Shown: in pieces, positions 1,038 to 12,902 of the stretch | Position numbering within the stretch: position 1 is the stretch's first letter | Layout of the letters: every line of letters begins with the position of its first letter | Origin: a virus | Lineage: Duplodnaviria; Heunggongvirae; Uroviricota; Caudoviricetes | Length of the DNA stretch: 12,902 bases | Virus record (IMG/VR): IMGVR_UViG_2541047884_000004 | Direction: 5' to 3' (one strand) | Made by a program: the position numbers and the translations under genes | Notes under the pieces: model-generated | The model's database searches: none | What the model saw: the letters and a program-made list of their open reading frames with translations, nothing else | Told to the model about the DNA's origin: nothing

Positions 1038-1466
1038 TTTAAGCTGTGTGACGAAGTAACCACTCTTAACAGCATAACCAATTTTTTACGTACGTAAACT
1101 ACTAAATGATATTTGTGAGAATGCCACCGAGTGTTCAAAACACCACCACAAATGCATAAGAAAACTTCAACAAATAACCAGTTAATAATTTCCGATGTTA
1201 TTTTTAGTTTGTTTAAATTAAGCTAAAGAATTATAGAGCACTTATAAATAAGTGCCATTAATATAAATTAGCTAATAGATTTATTTTTGTTCAGACAAGA
1301 GCCATGAATAGGATTAGATAGAAAAGGTTCAGATAAAAATAGAGATCTACTTCACAAATTAAATGAGAAACTAAAACTTACATCTTGAAATAATCACATT
1401 GATTAGATGAATATTTATCGCGCAGTGACATCATTTTTTAATAATAGTTCAAAAAAAGGGCGTACA

Positions 1467-2549
1467 ATGAAAAAATTAACAGTGGCAATTTCTGCTGTAG
1501 CTGCATCAGTACTGATGGCGATGTCTGCTCAGGCAGCTGAAATTTATAATAAAGACAGTAACAAGCTGGATCTATACGGGAAAGTTAATGCCAAGCACTA
1601 CTTCTCCTCTAATGATGCAGATGATGGTGATACTACTTATGCCCGTCTTGGCTTCAAAGGTGAAACCCAAATCAACGATCAACTGACTGGTTTCGGTCAG
1701 TGGGAATATGAATTCAAAGGCAACCGTGCTGAATCTCAAGGTTCTTCCAAAGACAAAACCCGTCTTGCATTTGCAGGCCTGAAATTTGGTGATTACGGCT
1801 CAATCGATTACGGCCGTAACTACGGTGTAGCATACGACATCGGTGCGTGGACTGACGTTCTGCCAGAATTCGGTGGTGATACCTGGACCCAAACAGATGT
1901 GTTCATGACTGGTCGCACTACTGGTGTTGCAACTTATCGTAACAACGACTTCTTTGGTCTGGTCGATGGCCTGAACTTTGCTGCTCAGTATCAGGGTAAA
2001 AATGACCGCACTGACGTAACTGAAGCCAATGGTGATGGTTTCGGTTTCTCCACTACTTATGAGTATGAAGGATTCGGCGTGGGTGCAACCTATGCTAAAT
2101 CAGATCGCACTGACGGTCAGGTCGCCTATGGTAAGAGCAAATTCAATGCCTCCGGCAAAAATGCGGAAGTATGGGCTGCAGGCCTGAAATATGATGCGAA
2201 CAATATCTATCTGGCTACCACATATTCTGAAACTCAGAATATGACCGTTTTTGGTAATAACCATATTGCAAACAAAGCACAAAACTTTGAAGCAGTAGCA
2301 CAATATCAGTTTGACTTCGGTCTGCGTCCATCTGTTGCTTACCTTCAGTCAAAAGGTAAAGACCTTGGTGTTCATGGTGACCGAGACTTAGTCAAGTATG
2401 TCGATGTCGGTGCTACTTACTACTTTAATAAAAACATGTCCACTTTTGTTGATTACAAAATCAACTTAATTGACGATAGTAAGTTTACCAAAACAGCTGG
2501 TATTGATACCGACGACATCGTCGCTGTAGGTCTGGTTTATCAGTTCTAA
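1467..2549 (+). CDS. nmpC: OmpC/PhoE-family general porin, phage-borne NmpC/Lc-like
   Basis: Signal peptide [23 protein letters not shown] then [16 protein letters not shown]...; hallmark 16-strand porin motifs ([43 protein letters not shown]-terminal VAVGLVYQF). ATG 1467 is preceded by AAGGG. Location between Q and the lysis genes matches the known nmpC (DLP12) and lc (PA-2) position. Confidence 0.88.
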
Positions 2550-5467: not shown

Positions 5468-5758
5468 TCATCTTTTAACTCCATATACCGCCAATATCCG
5501 TTTCATCGTGGCACTCTGGCGACACTCCTTAAAAATCAGGTTCGTGCTCATCTTTCCTTCCCGTTCTTCCTTGGTAGCAAACCGGTAATACACCGTTCGC
5601 CAGACCTTACCTTCGATAACCAGAAGACCTGCCCGTGCCATTTTAGCCGCGGCCTGATTTATGCTGGTTACTGTTGCGCCTGTTAGCGCGGCAACGTCCG
5701 GCGCACAGAAGCTATTATGCGTCCCCAGGTAATGAATAATTGCCTCTTTGCCCGTCAT
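5468..5758 (-). CDS. ren: Ren (Rex-exclusion resistance protein)
   Basis: 96 aa MTGKEAIIHYLGTHNSFCAPDVAALTGATVTSINQAAAKMARAG...; matches lambda Ren as recalled. ATG 5758 overlaps the P stop (ATGA). Confidence 0.85.
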   Translation of the reverse strand: MTGKEAIIHYLGTHNSFCAPDVAALTGATVTSINQAAAKMARAGLLVIEGKVWRTVYYRFATKEEREGKMSTNLIFKECRQSATMKRILAVYGVKR

Positions 5759-6456
5759 ACACTTGCTCCTTTCAGTCCTAACTTAGCTTTAATTTCTGCG
5801 ATCTTCGCCAGCGCCTGAACACGATTTAGAGGTCTGCCGCCCATGACAGGAAGTTGTTTTACTGGTTCAGGTATCGTCTCACCACGGTTAATTCGCGCTG
5901 TCATACAGGTCAGTTCATCGGCAGCCTTGCGTCGTAATTCCGCGTCAGTCAGCGCATTGGCCCGCATGTTCTGGTACAGGTTGGTAACCAGCCAGTAGTG
6001 CGCGTTCGATTTCCACGGATAAGACTCTGCATCCGGATACAGGCCTCGCTTCCGGCAATACTCGTAAACCATATCAACCAGCTCGCTGACGTTTGGCAGT
6101 CCGGCGATAACGGATGCTTCTTCCCGGCACCATGCAACAAACTGCCCGGGTGATGGCAGAAATGGTCGATTCTGCCGACGGGCTACGCGCATTCCTGCGT
6201 TAACCTGTTCCATTGTGGTGATCCCGTTTTCCCGGAAAGCCAGAACCCACTGGCGGCGGATTTCGTTCAGTTCGTTCTGGTCACGGTTAGCCAGACTCGC
6301 CGGGAAAGTTGCCAGTAACTGGCTGAACACACCGTTGATGATCTGCGCTACCTGCTGTACCTGCGGCTTTTCGTCGTACTGTTCCGGCATGTTGTTGGCG
6401 ATCCGACGCATCTGCTCACGGTCAAAATTAACCATCTGTGCGGCGATGTTTTTCAT
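5755..6456 (-). CDS. P: Replication protein P (DnaB helicase loader)
   Basis: 233 aa MKNIAAQMVNFDREQMRRIANNMPEQYDEKPQVQQVAQIINGVFSQLL...; near-identical to lambda P as recalled. ATG 6456 overlaps the O stop. Confidence 0.95.
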   Translation of the reverse strand: MKNIAAQMVNFDREQMRRIANNMPEQYDEKPQVQQVAQIINGVFSQLLATFPASLANRDQNELNEIRRQWVLAFRENGITTMEQVNAGMRVARRQNRPFLPSPGQFVAWCREEASVIAGLPNVSELVDMVYEYCRKRGLYPDAESYPWKSNAHYWLVTNLYQNMRANALTDAELRRKAADELTCMTARINRGETIPEPVKQLPVMGGRPLNRVQALAKIAEIKAKLGLKGASV

Positions 6457-6801
6457 AAATCCACCCCGTAAATCCAGTCAGTGTTTGTCAGGTCGAGTTT
6501 TGGTTTGCAGGCTGTCACACCTGCCTGTTGCTTGTTACGGTTGATTTCGAGCTGGGTCCACTTGTCGCGGAGTTTGGCCGGGCTCAGCACGTTACCGGAC
6601 CAGAAGTTGTCCTGGCATGCCCAGCGGAACAGTACACACATGTCGCGATGGTTACGTCCGTCACGTTCACGCATCAGGCGGATATCGTTAGCCCACCCTG
6701 CAAAATTCGGTTTTCTGGCTGATGGCGCGATGGTCTTCACCATGTCAAACATCCATTCTGCGGCGGTCAGGTCTTCTGCTGTCCCCCACTTGCTGCCGCT
6801 C
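6453..6801 (-). pseudogene. O: Replication initiator O, C-terminal (P-interacting) fragment, separated from its 5' part by an IS insertion
   Basis: In-frame translation from the IS boundary reads SGSKWGTAEDLTAAEWMFDMVKTIAPSARKPNFAGWANDIRLMRERDG...GVDL, matching the lambda O C-terminus. No promoter or start of its own; the upstream boundary is the IS end at 6802. Confidence 0.9.
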
Positions 6802-6855
6802 TGAACCGCCCCGGGAATCCTGGAGACTAAACTTCCTGAGAAAGAGGTAAACAGG

Positions 6856-7182
6856 ATGACTAAAAATACTCGTTTTTCCCCCGAAGTCCGTCAACGGGCA
6901 GTCCGTATGGTTCTGGAAAGTCAGAGCGAATATGACTCACAATGGGCGACAATTTGTTCCATTGCTCCAAAGATTGGCTGTACGCCGGAGACTCTGCGTG
7001 TCTGGGTTCGCCAGCATGAGCGGGATACCGGGGGCGGTGATGGAGGGCTCACCACCGCTGAACGTCAGCGTCTGAAAGAGCTGGAACGTGAAAATCGTGA
7101 ACTGCGCCGCAGTAACGATATCCTTCGCCAGGCTTCCGCTTATTTTGCGAAGGCGGAGTTCGACCGCCTCTGGAAAAAATGA
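6856..7182 (+). CDS. IS3-family transposase OrfA (HTH/leucine-zipper part)
   Basis: 108 aa [55 protein letters not shown]...; ends in an A6 run (7174..7179) where the -1 frame OrfB begins. Confidence 0.9.
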
Positions 7183-8069
7183 TGCCACTGCTGGATAAGC
7201 TGCGTGAGCAGTACGGGGTCGGACCGCTATGCAGCGAACTGCATATTGCCCCGTCAACGTATTACCACTGTCAGCAACAGCGACATCATCCGGATAAACG
7301 CAGTGCCCGTGCGCAGCGCGATGACTGGCTGAAGAAAGAGATACAGCGCGTATACGATGAAAATCACAAGGTATACGGTGTGCGTAAAGTCTGGCGTCAG
7401 TTGTTACGGGAAGGTATCAGAGTGGCCAGATGCACTGTGGCACGTCTCATGGCGGTTATGGGACTTGCCGGTGTTCTCCGGGGTAAAAAGGTCCGTACGA
7501 CCATCAGCCGGAAAGCCGTTGCCGCAGGCGACCGCGTAAACCGTCAGTTCGTGGCAGAACGACCTGACCAGCTGTGGGTGGCTGATTTTACTTACGTCAG
7601 CACATGGCGGGGCTTCGTCTATGTGGCGTTCATCATTGATGTGTTTGCCGGATACATCGTGGGGTGGCGGGTCTCATCGTCCATGGAAACGACATTCGTG
7701 CTGGATGCACTGGAGCAGGCGTTATGGGCCCGTCGACCGTCCGGCACGGTCCATCACAGTGATAAAGGTTCTCAGTATGTATCGCTGGCCTACACACAGC
7801 GGCTTAAGGAAGCCGGATTACTGGCATCAACAGGAAGTACAGGCGACTCGTATGACAACGCGATGGCGGAGAGCATCAATGGTCTTTACAAAGCGGAGGT
7901 AATACACCGTAAGAGCTGGAAAAACCGTGCAGAAGTGGAACTGGCCACACTCACGTGGGTGGACTGGTATAACAATCGACGATTGCTGGAAAGGCTGGGC
8001 CATACTCCTCCGGCAGAAGCAGAAAAAGCTTATTATGCTTCCATCGGAAACGATGATCTGGCAGCCTGA
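7179..8069 (+). CDS. IS3-family transposase OrfB (DDE catalytic domain); OrfAB fusion expected by programmed -1 frameshift
   Basis: 296 aa with an rve-type integrase core (…[31 protein letters not shown]… [11 protein letters not shown] … [17 protein letters not shown]…). Overlaps OrfA in the -1 frame at the A-run. Confidence 0.9.
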
Positions 8070-8111
8070 GTTCACAGATAAAACACTCTCCAGGAAACCC
8101 GGGGCGGTTCA

Positions 8112-8665
8112 CTCTGAATTGCAGCATCCGGTTTCACCACAGAAAGGTCGTTTTCTGGCTGGTCAGAGGATTCGCCAGAATTCTCTGACGAATAATCTTT
8201 TCTTTTTTCTTTTGTAATAGTGTCTTTTGTGTCCCCCTGTTTTGAGGGATAGCAATCCCCCAATTTGAGGGATGTTTTATCCCTCGTTTTAGGGGATTTT
8301 CCCTCGTTTTGAGGGATACACCATTCTGAGATGTTTTTATTTGGTCCAAACATGCCGCCTTGCTGCTTGATAATATTCATTCTGACGAGTTCTAACTTGG
8401 CTTCATTGCACCGTTTGACGGGTAACTTTGTAATCTCGCTAAGTTGAGAATCGGTGATTCTGTCCATTGGTTTATTCCATCCATAGGTTTTACGCAGAAT
8501 GGCAAGCAGCACTTTAAACTGTCGCTTGGTCAGATCTGCGCCTGAATAAGCCTCAAGCAGCATATTTGATAGTCTGGCGTAACCATCATCGAGATCTGCC
8601 ACATTACGCTCCTGTTTGGCAAAGTTACCTCTGCAGAAGTTGAGTATTTTTGCTGTATTTGTCAT
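8112..8665 (-). pseudogene. O: Replication initiator O, N-terminal (ori-binding) fragment, truncated by the IS insertion
   Basis: ATG 8665 with AGGAG RBS; MTNTAKILNFCRGNFAKQERNVADLDDGYARLSNMLLEAYSGADLTKRQFKVLLAILRKTYGWNKPMDRITDSQL... matches lambda O. The reading frame runs into the IS end and stops at 8072 after 15 IS-encoded residues. Confidence 0.9.
8185..8317. repeat. ori-lambda-type replication origin inside O: four iterons plus adjacent AT-rich region
   Basis: Four ~18-19 bp near-palindromic repeats of the TCCCTC-N-GAGGGA type (about 8232..8250, 8255..8273, 8279..8297, 8300..8317), flanked by the AT-rich stretch 8185..8231 (tgacgaataatcttttcttttttcttttgtaatagtg). Confidence 0.75.
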
Positions 8666-8697
8666 AATGACTCCTGTGGATTGATCCAGTAATGACC

Positions 8698-8994
8698 TCA
8701 GAATTCCATCTGGATTTGTTCAGAACGCTCGGTTGCCGCCGGGCGTTTTTTATTGGTGAGTCCATCAAGCGCATACTTAAAAGCCCTGCTAATCGGACTG
8801 ATGTCTGATGCCATTCCGAAAGCACACAAGACCGAAGCAATAAATCTCCAGTCCGTTCTGCTTATCTTCGATTCATGACAGCCAATCATCTTTGCCAGAC
8901 CGCGCTGGGTAATAGCTGACAGATTGATAAGTAAATCTGTTTCTGCGCGATCAACGTCACGCTGTGATAGTTTGCTGTAACTTGTTCTTTCCAT
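8698..8994 (-). CDS. cII: CII-like transcriptional activator
   Basis: 98 aa; C-terminal LTNKKRPAATERSEQIQMEF matches lambda CII as recalled, the N-terminal two thirds are divergent. Position between cro and O. Confidence 0.8.
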   Translation of the reverse strand: MERTSYSKLSQRDVDRAETDLLINLSAITQRGLAKMIGCHESKISRTDWRFIASVLCAFGMASDISPISRAFKYALDGLTNKKRPAATERSEQIQMEF

Positions 8995-9079
8995 TTCTTA
9001 AGATTTCCAATAGTGAATAGTTAGTTGAAAGGTATGCGTGGAAACGCATATGGCCTTAGTTGGTCAGATATCTTGGAAC

Positions 9080-9124
9080 TCGCTTTTCAGCGACGTAGGA
9101 CGAATGTCCGTTGTTACAAAGAGC
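9080..9124 (-). promoter_or_regulatory. nutR-like site: boxA, spacer hairpin, boxB hairpin with GAAA loop
   Basis: Minus-strand reading GCTCTTTGTAACAA (boxA-like, 9124..9111), hairpin GGAC-attc-GTCC (9109..9098), hairpin TCGCT-GAAA-AGCGA (9093..9080). It lies just after the cro stop and has the same architecture as the site upstream of N. Confidence 0.5.
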
Positions 9125-9135
9125 GGATCCGCTTA

Positions 9136-9351
9136 TTAAGCGGCTTTGTGTTCCGGCGGGAACACGTCATCAAGACTGACTTTTGCGCCTAACTTGTTTA
9201 GGCACGCAACAAGAGCACGGCATGTTTTAAGGTCTGGGAAGCGACGACCAGATTCCCAATGTCCGATAGCTCCCTGTGTGCATCCAACTGCCTTAGCAAG
9301 TGTTGTTTGAGAGATATTCAGTGACTCTCGATATTTTCGTAGGTTGCTCAT
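9136..9351 (-). CDS. cro: Cro-like repressor (HTH, XRE family)
   Basis: 71 aa from ATG 9351 (MSNLRKYRESLNISQTTLAKAVGCTQGAIGHWESGRRFPDLKTCRALVACLNKLGAKVSLDDVFPPEHKAA), preceded by GGAGGG; divergent from cI. The longer ORF-track form would overlap the operator region and is rejected. Confidence 0.75.
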   Translation of the reverse strand: MSNLRKYRESLNISQTTLAKAVGCTQGAIGHWESGRRFPDLKTCRALVACLNKLGAKVSLDDVFPPEHKAA

Positions 9352-9462
9352 ATGCCCTCCATAGTAAACACGAATAAAAAAATACAATATGTACTTTGCG
9401 AATACAAGTAAAAATACACATTGTGCATGGATGGTTCCAGTACAGAGCGTAATAATAAGGAC
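9352..9462. promoter_or_regulatory. OR region: divergent pR (for cro) and pRM (for cI) with TACA/TGTA-type operator repeats
   Basis: Candidate pR on the minus strand: TTGTAT (9407..9402), 17-bp spacer, TATTTT (9384..9379). Operator-like near-palindromes include TACAATATGTA (9383..9393) and TACAAGTA (9403..9410). The motif at 9382..9397 is shared with the pL region. Candidate pRM -10 TAATAA (9450..9455) lies 7 bp before the cI ATG. Confidence 0.55.
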
Positions 9463-10122
9463 ATGAAAATGAAATGGTATGAACTGGCTAGATCCAGAAT
9501 GAAAGAGCTCGGCATAACTCAAGAGAAGTTAGCCGAAGAGCTAGGTATGACGCAGGGTGGGATTGGACACTGGTTGCGCGGATCTCGTCATCCATCTCTT
9601 AGTGATATTGGTGTGGTGTTTAAATACCTTGGTATTGATAACATATCATTCAACCACGACGGGACATTTTCACCTGTTGGCGAATACTCATCGGCCCCAG
9701 TTAAAAAACAATATGAGTACCCTGTTTTTTCTCATGTTCAGGCTGGGATGTTCTCTCCAGAACTCAGAACCTTTACCAAAGGCGATGCGGAGAGATTGGT
9801 AAGCACAACCAAAAAAGCCAGTGACTCTGCATTCTGGCTTGAGGTTGAAGGTAACTCAATGACCGCACCAACAGGTTCCAAACCCAGCTTTCCTGACGGG
9901 ATGTTAATTCTGGTTGACCCTGAGCAAGCTGTTGAGCCCGGCGATTTCTGCATAGCCAGACTTGGTGGTGATGAATTTACCTTCAAGAAACTGATCAGGG
10001 ATAGCGGTCAGGTGTTTCTACAGCCACTAAACCCACAATACCCAATGATCCCATGCAATGAGAGTTGTTCCGTTGTGGGGAAAGTTATCGCCAGCCAATG
10101 GCCTGAAGAGACGTTTGGGTGA
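9463..10122 (+). CDS. cI: CI prophage repressor: HTH N-terminal domain plus S24 (LexA-like) autocleavage C-terminal domain
   Basis: C-terminal ~150 aa ([71 protein letters not shown]...[10 protein letters not shown]) match lambda CI as recalled, including the GNSM serine and catalytic Lys regions. N-terminal DNA-binding domain differs from lambda. Start taken at ATG 9463 (ATG 9469 also possible). Confidence 0.9.
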
Positions 10123-10161
10123 TGAAACCACTTTTATCTACAATTTACAGGGCGGTAAACA

Positions 10162-10719
10162 TTGGCAAAAATAGATGATTATCAGCCAAGCCAAGTAGAA
10201 GTTGATAAAGTACTTTATTGTAAAAAAATAGTTAACTTTTCTGGCGTTAAATGGAAACAGAAACCAAGTCGCTCTGATATGTGGCTACAAGCCCATATCA
10301 TCCCCTTGGATGAGGATTGTATACCTATACAAGGGCTAAAGTTTGAACTGAAATGGAAACCAGATCAGGATTCAGAACCTGATGACCCGATTTCTTACCC
10401 TAAAATAAATATTATTGCTTTCTATCATAACAAGAGGGTTTTCGCGGTAGATACCTATCACTTTGACAAACACACGAATAGTTACAAGGTCGATCATCCG
10501 AAGTACCAAGATATCATTTACGGTGCTCACTACCATGTATACTATGAAGAAGCTGGATACTATAGTGATAGAATAGCGTTTCCAATCGAAGATGACATAA
10601 ACCCAGATGGCCTGGTAGGGTATTGGAATTACTTCTGTAAACATCTGAACATAACTTACTCTGGGAGAATACCTTTACCGCTTGAAGATGAGTCGGGGCA
10701 AATGGGGTTTGGAATATGA
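10162..10719 (+). CDS. Hypothetical protein, 185 aa, no recognised family; first gene of a two-gene cassette at the rexAB-equivalent locus
   Basis: Long ORF in AT-rich DNA immediately downstream of cI. First in-frame start is TTG at 10162 (preceded by AGGGCGG); no in-frame ATG until codon 40. Hydrophilic, rich in aromatic and acidic residues, no obvious TM segment. Confidence 0.6.
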   Translation: MAKIDDYQPSQVEVDKVLYCKKIVNFSGVKWKQKPSRSDMWLQAHIIPLDEDCIPIQGLKFELKWKPDQDSEPDDPISYPKINIIAFYHNKRVFAVDTYHFDKHTNSYKVDHPKYQDIIYGAHYHVYYEEAGYYSDRIAFPIEDDINPDGLVGYWNYFCKHLNITYSGRIPLPLEDESGQMGFGI

Positions 10720-11468
10720 TGTGCGCAACAGTGATCTCACAACTAGGTTTCGAATGCCATCCAATAGGCAAGACCTTGAGAATTATCAGTCCATTCACTT
10801 ACTGTGATGATGGAGAGCATGTCGGTGCCTTTATCCGTGAAGTCAATGGTAGGTATTTAGTTAGTGACAGATGCGATGCCTTAATGAATATGGAGGCAAG
10901 AGGGATCTCGCTTACCAAAAAACGACTTGATGAGATACGACAATTACTGCTTAAAGAAGGCGCAGAACTCAATGCTCGAGGAGAAATCATTGCTTGGGCA
11001 ACAGAAAAGGATGTCGGTGCGATTACATCGAACATAATTAGAGCTGGTATACTCGCATCAACTTTGTCGTTAGACTGGTATCAGCCAGTTCAAGCTGAAA
11101 AGTTTGAAAGTATGGTTATTGATTATCTATATCACACAGAGCTTAGAGACGCACTTTCTCTTCGTGAAAACGTATATGGCTTGAGTGGACATCAAATTAC
11201 CGTCCCTGTAACAATAAAAACCGACATACCTAAATACGTTTTTACATCAAGCGTGAAACACGGAGGAAGCTGGAATAGTGCTTACTCATTGCTTGGGAAA
11301 CTAATTGATCTTAAAGCTTCAAGTGAGGAGTATAACAACAGATTTGTTGTTATAGACAGCGAAGCAATTGGTGATCAAATGCAACAACTCTCCTTACTCT
11401 TCCATGAATCAAGCCAAGTTCTACCATTCTCCAAAAGAGAGACTTGGGTTAAGAGACTTGCAGCATAA
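10716..11468 (+). CDS. Hypothetical protein, 250 aa, no recognised family; second gene of the cassette
   Basis: ATG 10716 overlaps the stop of the upstream gene (ATGATG...TGA, typical translational coupling). Same strand as cI, followed within 6 nt by an intrinsic terminator. No TM segments apparent. Confidence 0.65.
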   Translation: MMCATVISQLGFECHPIGKTLRIISPFTYCDDGEHVGAFIREVNGRYLVSDRCDALMNMEARGISLTKKRLDEIRQLLLKEGAELNARGEIIAWATEKDVGAITSNIIRAGILASTLSLDWYQPVQAEKFESMVIDYLYHTELRDALSLRENVYGLSGHQITVPVTIKTDIPKYVFTSSVKHGGSWNSAYSLLGKLIDLKASSEEYNNRFVVIDSEAIGDQMQQLSLLFHESSQVLPFSKRETWVKRLAA

Positions 11469-11473
11469 TACAA

Positions 11474-11499
11474 CCCGGCCTCAGCGCCGGGTTTTCTTT
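11474..11499 (+). terminator. Intrinsic terminator ending the cI-cassette transcript (tIMM-equivalent)
   Basis: cccggc / ctcag / gccggg stem-loop followed by GTTTTCTTTG. Confidence 0.6.
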
Positions 11500-11682
11500 G
11501 CCTCACGTTCGCCCACCTAAAAACACATAACCAATTATATTTATTGAAAAATAAATAGATGCAACCCACTAAACCACGCAATTCTGATCTCTCCTTACAT
11601 CGCCGAGGCAATACATCCACGCTAAAAAACAACACTATTAAATACAAAGCGTTATAAAAAACCACGCCAACTTACAACAAAT

Positions 11683-11725
11683 TGTATTGATCTTGTAAAG
11701 TACATATCGTACTATTTAACCGTCA
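11683..11725 (+). promoter_or_regulatory. pL promoter with overlapping OL operator repeats
   Basis: TTGATC (11697..11702), 17-bp spacer, TACTAT (11720..11725). Operator-like inverted repeats TACAACAAATTGTA (11683..11696), TGTAAAGTACA (11704..11714) and AGTACATATCGTACT (11709..11723). The 16-mer AAAGTACATATCGTAC (11707..11722) recurs at OR with two mismatches. Confidence 0.5.
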
Positions 11726-11761
11726 GCAGGACGCTGGAAGCCAAATGGAACAGACTGGCAG

Positions 11762-11806
11762 GCTCTTTAAACAACGTCGACTCTCGACTACGTGGCTGAA
11801 AAGCCA
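11762..11806 (+). promoter_or_regulatory. nutL-like site: boxA, spacer hairpin, boxB hairpin with GAAA loop
   Basis: GCTCTTTAAACAA (11762..11774), hairpin GTCGA-ctc-TCGAC (11776..11788), hairpin TGGCT-GAAA-AGCCA (11793..11806), about 100 nt upstream of N. Confidence 0.5.
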
Positions 11807-11904
11807 GATCACCCAACCACATAAGCTGTGGGATGCAATGCCGAAGCAACCGTCTCAGGAGGAGCTTCGAGATTGCATCGCCAAAGTTTATTCGGGAGGA
11901 ATCC

Positions 11905-12177
11905 ATGTCCAGAAAAACAGAATTTAAAGGCACCGCAGCTTCTCGCCGTAGAGCTCGTCGCGCAAATCTGCAAAGTCAGGAGGCGATCAGCTCCGACAAG
12001 CTACACAGGCCAACCCCTTCACGAGTGGTCTTGCAATGCAAGCTCAAACCAGCAATGAGAGCAGAAGTGATAACTCTGACAACGTTGACCAGAAAATATG
12101 AAGGTTCAACTTGTCTTCCGAACGTAGCTCTTTACGCGGCAGGCTACCGGAAATCAAAACAACTGACGGCGAGATGA
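11905..12177 (+). CDS. N: N-family transcription antiterminator (P22 gp24-like)
   Basis: 90 aa from ATG 11905 with GGGAGGA RBS. N-terminal arginine-rich motif (GTAASRRRARRANLQ); C-terminal LPNVALYAAGYRKSKQLTAR closely resembles the P22 gene 24 protein C-terminus as recalled. First gene after pL/nutL. Confidence 0.75.
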   Translation: MSRKTEFKGTAASRRRARRANLQSQEAISSDKLHRPTPSRVVLQCKLKPAMRAEVITLTTLTRKYEGSTCLPNVALYAAGYRKSKQLTAR

Positions 12178-12193
12178 TAAATTCATTTGCTAA

Positions 12194-12775
12194 TTACTTG
12201 TTTTTGCCATGCTTATCCTGAGCGATAAGTTCATCCATAAGGCTGTCTGCCTTCCCGGCAAACCTAATGTAGCACTCATGTCTATAGCTTTCAGGGATAA
12301 CGAAACGGTCGGTATCAGGATATCCAACAGCAGGAGGCCTTCGAACGAGGAGTCCTTTTTTGAGCAATGAAATTGATTCATGAGCGCCCTTTTCCGTTTG
12401 TAGCTGGTTATTAGCGGCTACAGCGAATGCCAAATACGCTCTTTCTCCAAGAGTTAACGAATCAAACAAATCTTGCACATATTTTTCTTCTTTAGATTTG
12501 CGCTTCTGAGCAGCGAATACCTCAATTCTTTCAGTCACAGCGTGATAAGCGGAATTAACAACGCCGTTAAGCACATAGCTAACGCAAAACAACAGGATGT
12601 AATACATCCAGTAATGAGGAAGGATTTCTGGATTATGCAGGTTTATCCATTCTTTTACGCTTACCGGCATAACAATAATCAATATGATCAGGATGATTAG
12701 CATATGAATCAACTGTTTAAGTGTCATTCCTTGCAGGAAAAAATGCATTAGTTCCTGCCACCATGAGTTGTTCAT
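12194..12775 (-). CDS. sieB: Superinfection exclusion protein B
   Basis: 193 aa from ATG 12775 (MNNSWWQELMHFFLQGMTLKQLIHMLIILIILIIVMPVSVKEW...), hydrophobic N-terminal TM region; near-identical to lambda SieB as recalled. Convergent with N. Confidence 0.85.
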   Translation of the reverse strand: MNNSWWQELMHFFLQGMTLKQLIHMLIILIILIIVMPVSVKEWINLHNPEILPHYWMYYILLFCVSYVLNGVVNSAYHAVTERIEVFAAQKRKSKEEKYVQDLFDSLTLGERAYLAFAVAANNQLQTEKGAHESISLLKKGLLVRRPPAVGYPDTDRFVIPESYRHECYIRFAGKADSLMDELIAQDKHGKNK

Positions 12776-12809
12776 CGGCGTTTCTCTTTTGCTCTCTGTA
12801 GGGGTGAAT

Positions 12810-12902
12810 TGAACCGCCCCGGGTTTCCTGGAGAGTGTTTTATCTGTGAACTCAGGCTGCCAGATCATCGTTTCCGATGGAAGCATAATAAGCTTTTTCT
12901 GC
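12810..12902 (-). mobile_element. End of a second IS3-family (IS629/IS1203-like) copy, inverted relative to the first; continues beyond the window
   Basis: 12810..12902 is the reverse complement of 8019..8111, the right end of the complete copy including its terminal inverted repeat and the 3' end of OrfB. Confidence 0.88.

Follow-up and report, generated by a model that had tools for sequence, protein, structure and literature searches.

The stretch of DNA analysed here (the window; 12,902 nt) gives a view of 12.9 kb of a prophage, which belongs to the lambdoid prophages of a B2/ExPEC-type E. coli lineage that includes those of CFT073, ATCC 25922 and Nissle 1917. The gene for the replication initiator O lies on the minus strand, with its ATG at 8665-8663 and its stop codon at 6455-6453, and is split by an insertion sequence (IS) at 6802..8111 on the plus strand, the transposase genes of which are antisense to O. 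Gene P, encoding the helicase loader, follows intact at 5755..6456 on the minus strand (PF06992, E=1e-61, and annotation in relatives), its start codon overlapping the O stop codon in the ATGA at 6456-6453.

Direct reading of the sequence gave an IS length of exactly 1310 bp, with the 5′ end TGAACCGCCCCGGG and the 3′ end CCCGGGGCGGTTCA; size and termini (TGAACCGCC...GGCGGTTCA) are those of IS3-family elements, which measure about 1.2-1.55 kb and run from 5′-TG to CA-3′. The left inverted repeat (IRL, 6802..6826, plus strand) begins with TG and pairs with the right one (IRR, 8087..8111, plus strand), which ends with CA, the two 25-bp repeats matching at 23 of 25 positions. Also typical of IS3 elements are the two overlapping reading frames on the plus strand, orfA (6856..7182; 108 aa), encoding the HTH transposase N-terminal part (PF01527, E=7e-13; positions 1-86 of the IS3 family model), and orfB (7179..8069; 296 aa), encoding the DDE/rve catalytic part (rve, E=8e-28). 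OrfB alone scored 314.6 bits against the IS3 equivalog NF033516, for which the cut-off is 160, and the profiles matched in the IS reading frames were HTH_Tnp_1, HTH_21, rve and rve_3. An A6 slippery run (7174-7179) stands immediately before the orfA stop codon, within an ALIL pseudoknot, a −1 frameshift stimulator (7137..7253, plus strand; RF01497, 120.2 bits against a gathering score of 50, E=2e-31). This combination of A-run and RNA structure predicts OrfAB frameshifting of the IS3 kind, and PGAP flags a 'programmed frameshift' in identical copies of the element. A complete IS3-family element of 1310 bp is what a preliminary description made from the letters of the sequence had reported, and that reading is upheld here.

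Copies identical to the element (100%) are present in EC21GDE043 and in CFT073, where the same prophage has its copy between ren and ninB. Copies in O157:H7, named 'IS1203 family' by PGAP, are 95.7-96.3% identical (about 96.2%), and the ISfinder rule for isoforms is at least 95% nucleotide identity. On these grounds the element is best named, by way of the PGAP-labelled copies, as an isoform of IS629/IS1203 and not the O157 sequence itself; its length, ends and protein families agree with that assignment. Its frames are intact and identical copies occur at different sites in sister strains, which indirectly suggests an active element.

The element is flanked by a CTC on its left (6799..6801) and on its right (8112..8114), both seen by reading of the sequence and both already noted in the preliminary description. 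A target-site duplication of this length is expected of an IS3 element (3-4 bp), and duplications of 3-4 bp have been reported for IS629 (PMC3271280). A 3-bp repeat alone would arise by chance with a probability of 1/64; the junction is more than chance because excision restores a known O gene to the base. As it stands, the window lacks an uninterrupted O frame of ~299 codons; such a frame appears only when the IS and one CTC are taken out in silico, the join of 6453-6801 to 8115-8665 being 900 nt long, or 299 codons without an internal stop, and reading PDAAIQSGSKWGTAEDLTAAEW across the joint. The insertion point falls at codons 184/185 of O, corresponding to lambda coordinates 39237-39239. 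Over these 900 nt the reconstituted gene matches O of phages ev017, ev207, PhiR57_1 and PhiR63_2 at 100%, as it does O of ATCC 25922. Relative to lambda O it is 97.9% identical, with 19 base differences, silent or missense, in 900 nt, and the protein matches at 296 of 299 residues, the differences (G11C, G17K and S282C) all being distant from the joint. This base-exact restoration of a known gene is decisive and settles the insertion as real, and it bears out the claim of a simple insertion whose flanks rejoin into a continuous O frame.

The window thus holds O in two pieces, as a disrupted member (pseudogene) of the lambda-type O family. The promoter-proximal piece is a truncated frame of 197 aa (8072..8665, minus strand), composed of residues 1-185 of O (8665..8111) and 12 IS-coded residues, EPPRVSWRVFYL, with a stop codon at 8074-8072; the tail had been put at 15 residues, which we correct to 12. 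Codon 185 still encodes Ser, the terminal IS base changing AGC to AGT. As had been claimed, the fragment keeps its ATG, a ribosome-binding site (AGGAG, 5 nt upstream of the ATG) and the ori iterons. It contains Phage_rep_O (PF04492) at residues 22-115 (E=3e-36) and matches TIGR01610, phage_O_Nterm, with 133.5 bits, and so carries a lambda-type N-terminal domain. Four iterons of the 18-19 bp type (8300-8317, 8280-8297, 8256-8273 and 8233-8250, minus strand), each identical base by base to lambda ITN1-4, adjoin an AT-rich tract (8191..8232, minus strand; 65-85% A+T in 20-nt windows), forming an origin inside the coding sequence. O-plus coordinates 305 to 552, spanning the AT tract, are identical to lambda, and the IS lies about 75 bp past that tract.

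The orphaned 3′ part of O (6453..6798, minus strand; identified from the sequence and by comparison with lambda O) comprises codons 186-299 and the stop codon, and the equivalent piece in relatives is annotated by PGAP as 'replication protein, incomplete, missing N-terminus'. Gene P is now separated from the last translated O codon by 1.7 kb and one antisense IS. In lambda-type initiators, the C-terminal half binds P and recruits DnaB. Classical hybrid-phage genetics (Furth et al. 1978; Wickner and Zahn 1986) reportedly established the division of O into N- and C-terminal parts, the C-terminal half contacting P. The amino-terminal half binds the iterons (PMC4488673). Solved structures yielded no match to O, and a literature search for P-binding residues of O and for dominant-negative N-terminal O returned only the iteron binding of the amino-terminal half; the domain boundary used here is taken from Pfam, TIGR and the literature. 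With that boundary, the split falls between the ori-binding part and the remainder of O, as the preliminary description had placed it.

We next consider how widespread the event is. Among complete E. coli genomes, 0 of 5,426 had the exact junction, neither junction being found there as one piece, and exact-match scans for the left junction in GTDB representative genomes, IMG/VR and JGI metagenomes were negative. The uninterrupted 200-bp site was present in 3,213 of the 5,426 genomes, and prophages whose site is empty and whose flanks are ~100% identical occur in ATCC 25922, BEN2908, ST95-32 and others. Because the junction is absent from all 5,426 genomes while 3,213 have the uninterrupted site, the event appears to be recent and strain-specific. 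The earlier suggestion of a probably recent insertion therefore holds, given also the 100% identity of the IS to another copy and flanks ~100% identical to empty-site strains. The exact junction could be used as a strain-specific marker. We consider it highly probable that a simple, recent transposition placed an IS629/IS1203-type element in O of this lambdoid prophage and, as we infer, cost the prophage its own theta replication.

On derepression of pR, O would be translated as far as the 12th codon within the IS, into a 197-aa product that keeps the iteron-binding N-terminal half but lacks residues 186-299, the half that contacts P according to genetic work; without that half no O-P-DnaB preprimosome should form at ori, so that the prophage could not begin its own theta replication. 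Transcription towards P and the genes downstream would have to pass through the IS, 1.3 kb that is antisense and would go untranslated, and P would also lose its translational coupling to O through the ATGA overlap, so lower P expression is expected; we infer this polarity on P. A scan for promoters and terminators showed no strong O-sense terminator inside the IS; all that it detected was the promoter and the terminator of oop, as expected. Copying of the prophage DNA is thus very probably stopped, a well-founded reading, and the insertion would be a concrete reason why prophage DNA should not amplify after induction in this strain. The loss concerns self-driven replication only. Since ori is intact, O could be provided in trans by a lambda-type phage, whether co-resident or superinfecting, and lambda-type O and P together could still replicate the element. 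Replication from the ori of a trapped prophage kills the host (PMC3349717), and in an excision-defective prophage the loss of O would also end this lethal in-situ replication after induction.

Whether the insertion changed the behaviour of the prophage depends on its state beforehand. The prophage may already have been non-inducible when the IS arrived, in which case the insertion was neutral, a further step of decay with no change of phenotype; we regard this as a serious possibility, though not the favoured one. Nissle 1917 carries the same prophage (99.8% identity) with O intact, and neither antibiotic nor heat induced the prophages of that strain, prophage 3 being judged inactive or defective (PMC5987069). 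O may accordingly not be the sole or first defect, because an intact-O prophage was reported as non-inducible. Decay is also seen elsewhere in the lineage: DUF1364 is a pseudogene in all relatives, CFT073 has a broken cI in addition to the IS between ren and ninB, and E12053 and EC21GDE043 have large IS-flanked deletions. The Nissle observation is, however, reported as 'data not shown' and concerns another strain (PMC5987069). Moreover, O apart from the insertion, P, ren, nin, Q and the lysis genes in the window are open and ~100% identical to those of intact-O strains, and an identical O is present in the isolated and sequenced phages ev017, ev207, PhiR57_1 and PhiR63_2.

A different question is whether the position of the hit reflects preferred IS629 sites in O, selection for O knock-outs (which would abolish replicative killing or lytic loss of the host), or both, making the insertion a case of recurrent domestication. 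Across 23 complete genomes, lambda-type O genes contained IS629-type copies at 13 further positions, in both orientations, which makes 14 mapped positions with that of the window. Four genomes carry insertions at the CTA of O nt 225-227, which occur in both orientations and involve two variants of the element, 99% and 96% identical to that of the window. Within the prophage lineage of the window, E12053 and EC21GDE043 carry a copy in the opposite orientation that abuts O 3 bp away, and the insertion in the HM670 group lies 33 bp off. When the insertion sites in O were compared for a shared target motif, no strong one emerged, only a weak one, CG|(C/G)T(C/A), at four sites. Together with the documented replicative killing by trapped lambda prophages (PMC3349717), these coincidences give the idea of a non-random hit some substance.

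Orientation is unbiased: with the CTA site and the two close pairs entered under both, the positions number nine for one orientation and seven for the opposite. Against the idea, by a rough count, ~24 copies lie in O where ~3 would be expected under uniform insertion, and this ~7-fold excess is covered by the general bias of IS629 towards phage DNA, 62% of its copies being in prophage or prophage-like DNA (PMC3271280). Copies inherited by clones are not independent events, and the E12053 junction could derive from a window-like ancestor. Among 14 sites, ~0.7 pairs at most 3 bp apart are expected, so three such coincidences are marginal (~0.03, an estimate), and published work describes no sequence-specific IS629 hot spot (PMC3271280). 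Preference or selection as the reason for the hit is on balance unlikely. The fuller proposal, that CG|CTC, CG|CTA and CG|GTC are true IS629 target sites in O, reused both ways, and that the knock-outs are selected prophage immobilisation, is more improbable still; if true, lethal in-situ replication would be abolished while immunity, SieB and the candidate defence cargo are kept. The one mildly new point is that insertions in O recur, with a few positions struck more than once and in either orientation, and these repeat hits will matter only if a proper survey confirms site preference or selection.

The truncated O could also be pictured as an exclusion factor, with the O(1-185)+12 protein occupying the iterons of incoming lambda-type phages and blocking their replication. 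The fragment does have a start codon, a ribosome-binding site and a complete iteron-binding domain. ClpXP recognises a signal at the N-terminus of lambda O and degrades the protein within a half-life of minutes, and the fragment retains this N-terminus. The replication system is sensitive to titration, because extra copies of ori-lambda or oop-ori in trans inhibit lambda-type replication (PMC4488673, PMC3349717), but this published inhibition requires multicopy DNA, oop plus iterons, and not O protein (PMC3349717). The fragment is single-copy and stands downstream of pR, cro and cII next to an intact cI-type repressor gene, so that none of it is expected while lysogeny is stable. Infection by a heteroimmune phage would leave the repression in place, and immunity would stop a homoimmune one anyway; intact O is, in addition, the norm in this prophage lineage. 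Interference with superinfecting phages, which the preliminary description had raised, is accordingly weak as a proposal for a single-copy fragment behind a repressed pR, and we judge exclusion to be very unlikely.

At the far end of the window lies the right end of a second IS copy (12810..12902, minus strand), which matches the first exactly over its 93 bp, is inverted relative to it and runs to the window end; the two copies bracket 8112..12809. The genes for immunity, SieB and a candidate defence cargo in the window now stand between two inverted IS copies. ATCC 25922 has an IS at the same nucleotide upstream of sieB, which we considered as the counterpart of the second copy and rejected: it is a different element of ~1.25 kb with an AAT duplication and ends (TGAAGTGG...) that resemble those of IS911. 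The inverted pair (6802-8111 and 12810 onwards, 4.7 kb apart) might be read as a composite transposon with O′ and its ori, oop, cII, cro, cI, N and sieB as cargo, together with a two-gene candidate defence system that weakly matches PADLOC candidate PDC-M24 A/B. We give this reading hardly any credence: the copy in O has its own perfect CTC duplication and flanks that rejoin exactly, which implies that it arrived as a single IS, the outer flank and duplication of the second copy lie outside the window, and the two-copy arrangement occurs in no other genome among 5,426 complete E. coli genomes. Least credible of all is an assembly artefact, with an IS copy misplaced into O. Multicopy repeats such as IS629-type elements do often disrupt or mislead the assembly of short reads, but a misjoin would not produce a flawless 3-bp duplication that, once removed, leaves a known gene exact to the base, and analogous insertions are present in closed genomes.

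The preferred reading, a single transposition into O, can be set beside several known systems. Lambda itself has the same layout of cII, oop, O with ori inside, and P with overlapping stop and start codons; O is uninterrupted there and split here at lambda 39237-39239. The IS629/IS1203 elements of E. coli O157:H7 and Shigella and the CFT073 copy resemble the window IS in their 1310 bp, TG...CA ends, ~25-bp imperfect inverted repeats, orfA and orfB with −1 frameshift, ALIL, 3-bp duplication and preference for prophage DNA, the O157:H7 copies differing in being about 96.2% identical. For O-defective lambda prophages (amber or resistant to replicative killing), the expected phenotype is the same, namely no ori-lambda theta replication after induction (PMC3349717); the host of a trapped prophage survives, as would be expected here (PMC3349717). 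Those prophages are laboratory point or selected mutants, whereas the present case is a natural IS insertion with a predicted phenotype.

The closest natural cases are in HM670, KE51, FCI5 and OZ546918, which share with the window the prophage, the IS (99.92%), its orientation and the gene, and in which PGAP annotates the O halves as pseudogene pieces. We examined them as the same insertion on the strength of a 99.9% full-length match and rejected them, as their junctions are 33 bp apart from ours: the IS lies 33 bp further into O, with a GTC duplication at O nt 585-587, and there is no second IS copy upstream of sieB. Equal total length had masked the difference between the two insertions. 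More widely, IS629 interrupts various phage genes (PMC3271280, PMC4587872), and IS629-type elements are a well-documented main source of variation among otherwise identical prophages. The published lists of IS629 insertions in prophages (PMC4587872, PMC2669165, PMC3271280) contain none in O. In Stx and other prophages of O157:H7, IS629 is found in roi, lysozyme, methyltransferase and nu1 (PMC4587872, PMC2669165, PMC3271280). IS-driven prophage decay is common and well understood, and the insertion described here is real but ordinary. It belongs to the same class of events as the O157:H7 insertions, in which a single IS splits a gene, varies between strains and adds to the defectiveness of the prophage; the genes hit are other ones there, and here it is the replication initiator.

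The replication initiator gene O, which starts at 8665 on the minus strand, is interrupted by a 1310-bp element at 6802..8111 (start TGAACCGCCCCGGG, end CCCGGGGCGGTTCA), the ends of which match as inverted repeats at 23 of 25 positions. CTC stands on either flank (6799-6801 and 8112-8114). When the element and one CTC are taken out, 6453-6801 and 8115-8665 form a single open frame of 299 codons (900 nt), which reads ...AAIQSGSKWGTAEDL... over the joint. Across all 900 nt the rejoined DNA is 100% identical to the O gene of phages ev017, ev207, PhiR57_1 and PhiR63_2, and its identity to lambda is 97.9%; the protein agrees with lambda O at 296 of 299 residues, and all differences lie away from the joint. 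A 3-bp repeat by itself means little as evidence of insertion. The insertion is confirmed because the rejoined gene matches known O genes and prophages with an empty site exist. The preliminary description had proposed an insertion with CTC duplication splitting O, and the match of the rejoined frame to known O, to the base, bears this out. It is correct except for the length of the IS-encoded tail, given there as 15 residues: the truncated frame (8665..8072, minus strand) encodes 197 amino acids, O residues 1-185 with an IS-coded tail of 12, EPPRVSWRVFYL.

By all sequence criteria, the element is an IS3-family insertion sequence. Its ends are TG...CA, and orfA (6856-7182, HTH_Tnp_1) overlaps orfB (7179-8069, rve DDE core), both antisense to O. 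The NCBIfam IS3 equivalog score is 314.6 bits (cut-off 160), an A6 run lies directly ahead of the orfA stop, and the ALIL frameshift pseudoknot is found at 7137-7253 with 120 bits (gathering score 50). The target duplication is 3 bp; IS629 duplications are 3-4 bp (PMC3271280). The element is 100% identical to a copy in the ren/ninB interval of the same prophage in E. coli CFT073 and ~96.2% identical to O157:H7 copies, labelled IS1203 family by PGAP and named IS629 in the O157 literature.

Versions of the same prophage with an empty site and ~100% identical flanks occur in E. coli ATCC 25922, BEN2908, ST95-32 and others. The uninterrupted 200-bp site is present in 3,213 of 5,426 complete E. coli genomes, and neither the left nor the right junction was found as a single piece in any of the 5,426. 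The exact 33-nt left-junction pattern was absent from GTDB representative genomes, IMG/VR and JGI metagenomes. The absence of the junctions, the perfect duplication, the identity of the IS to its sister copies and the flanks shared with empty-site strains indicate that the event is recent and strain-specific. A 99.9% full-length match in HM670, KE51, FCI5 and OZ546918 was considered as the same insertion and ruled out by its junctions: these genomes carry the same IS in the same orientation, 33 bp deeper in O and with a GTC duplication.

The N-terminal fragment retains its start codon, an AGGAG ribosome-binding site 5 nt upstream and the entire N-terminal DNA-binding domain (residues 22-115); the amino-terminal half of O is its iteron-binding part (PMC4488673). 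Also on this side are the AT-rich tract (8191-8232) and all four iterons, which span 8233-8317 and are identical to those of lambda. Since the IS, at lambda coordinates 39237-39239, lies ~75 bp past the AT tract, the cis-acting ori is intact. No ribosome-binding site is evident for the orphaned residues 186-299 (6453-6798). Classical hybrid-phage genetics assigns the contact with P to this other half of O. Because that half is orphaned, O-P-DnaB assembly at ori would be expected to fail, leaving the prophage unable to begin theta replication unaided, as had been suggested from the sequence. P itself (6456..5755, minus strand) is likely to be expressed at a lower level, because its translational coupling to O through the ATGA overlap at 6456-6453 is lost and 1.3 kb of antisense IS sequence, transcribed but untranslated, now precedes it; a scan in the direction of P found no strong terminator. 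With ori undamaged, the prophage element could be replicated in trans by a lambda-type phage that is co-resident or superinfects, like the cross-talk described among defective O157 prophages (PMC2669165). Should the prophage be unable to excise, the lack of O would also avert the lethal replication in situ that has been termed replicative killing (PMC3349717). E. coli Nissle 1917 carries the same prophage with O intact and its prophages are reported to be non-inducible (PMC5987069), so the break in O may be neither the first nor the sole defect.

The preliminary description also raised the possibility that the N-terminal O fragment interferes with replication of related superinfecting phages. 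We regard this as very improbable: the fragment is encoded in single copy downstream of pR, beside an intact cI-type repressor, and documented trans-inhibition of lambda-type replication requires multicopy oop-ori DNA, not O protein. Lambda O is, moreover, quickly degraded by ClpXP via its N-terminus.

The window covers the early-right and late-control part of the prophage in reverse, as read with the annotation of near-identical relatives. The minus strand carries cII (8994..8698, CII family, PF05269), O, P, ren, ninB, a methyltransferase gene, rusA, Q and the lysis genes, as well as sieB; cI, two small genes and N are on the plus strand. The plus strand also carries a full-length OmpC/NmpC-type porin gene as prophage cargo (1407..2549; PF00267, E=2e-151; annotated ompC in relatives), with the Q antiterminator gene on one side and the lysis genes on the other, both on the minus strand; iss/bor is just past the window edge in relatives. 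Opposite cII, a promoter-like site (TTGAGT-17-CATAAT, 8640-8668, plus strand) and a strong terminator (8722-8749, plus strand) occupy the position of the lambda oop antisense RNA, and neither is touched by the IS. The Nissle 1917 'phage repressor (pr)', carried on pUC19, is reported to cut plating of lambda and Stx phage >200-fold (PMC5987069). Its cloning and quantification primers map to window 8672..9040, spanning the CII-family gene and the oop terminator without the oop promoter or any cI-type repressor. Directly 3' of the cI-like repressor, in the lambda rexA/rexB position, the overlapping genes 10162..10719 and 10716..11468 (plus strand) have PADLOC matches to the candidate defence system PDC-M24 (full length for part B, E=5e-10; weak for part A, E=1e-3), with DUF1828 and a sub-threshold DUF6978 match in Pfam.

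The right end of a second IS copy (12810..12902, minus-strand orientation, 93/93 bp match), inverted relative to the first and cut by the window end, lies directly upstream of sieB. The two copies flank 8112..12809, which holds the 5' part of O with ori, oop, cII, cro, cI, two small genes, N and sieB. An open frame exits the right end of the second copy (12194..12886, minus strand) and runs in frame into sieB, giving 230 amino acids versus 193 for SieB (PF14163); the same outward frame from the first copy is 7927..8217 (plus strand). ATCC 25922 carries a different IS3-family element of ~1.25 kb (locus L004, 12988..14252; ends TGAAGTGG...), presumably resembling IS911 in its ends. Because this element, with an AAT duplication, follows the identical nucleotide (after ...GGGGTGAAT; window 12801..12809), two different IS3-family elements have used the same spot, which is empty in CFT073 and HM670.

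When junctions were searched for in both orientations and the matches mapped, IS629-type copies were located at 13 further positions of lambda-type O genes in 23 complete genomes. Two-sided insertions lie at O nt 89-91 (duplication TGG), 225-227 (CTA; window-equivalent 8439..8441), 240-242 (AAC), 349-351 (GAT), 433-435 (GTC, at the edge of iteron 4) and 585-587 (GTC). Others are one-sided: past the IS, different DNA takes the place of the expected sequence, as would follow from IS-mediated deletion. Copies in both orientations and of two IS variants occupy the CTA site in Z1323HEC0393, O157:H7 F8798, O157:H7 F6294 and Z1323PEC0008, and, judging from an identical search match, in AR-0430. A similar close pair, 843/846 on the O-plus scale (O nt 55-58), occurs in LC-1302-2020 and MMC-J-0105. 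In APEC E12053 and EC21GDE043, of the same prophage lineage as the window, an inverted IS629-type copy abuts O at window-equivalent 6798, 3 bp from the window's junction, with a deletion from there up to a truncated int beside icd. The int break points differ between the two, which suggests successive IS-adjacent deletions. Their junction could be an independent hit or could go back to an ancestor resembling the window, in which the second, inverted IS copy transposed intramolecularly. In E. coli MS 119-7, an IS629-type copy with a TAA duplication lies in the cII-O interval, at the O start/ribosome-binding region between TTGTCATAA and TAATGACTCC; the O frame is still intact but cut off from pR.

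By a rough count, ~24 copies lie in O against ~3 expected with uniform insertion. The published preference of IS629 for prophage DNA in general is of about this size, so gene-level targeting of O is not required; 62% of IS629 copies reside in prophage or prophage-like DNA (PMC3271280). At the level of single sites, the coincidences are no more than suggestive. The sole modestly new aspect is that a few O positions are used repeatedly, and its meaning hinges on a phylogeny-aware survey. Neither partner is a new sequence: one is an O gene of lambda type, the other an IS629/IS1203-type element to which the CFT073 copy is identical. Annotation pipelines already record comparable cases as 'replication protein' pseudogenes in separate pieces. 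We conclude that the finding is real but ordinary: an IS split of a prophage gene is a well-documented kind of event, and IS629 is known to interrupt various phage genes (PMC3271280; PMC4587872).
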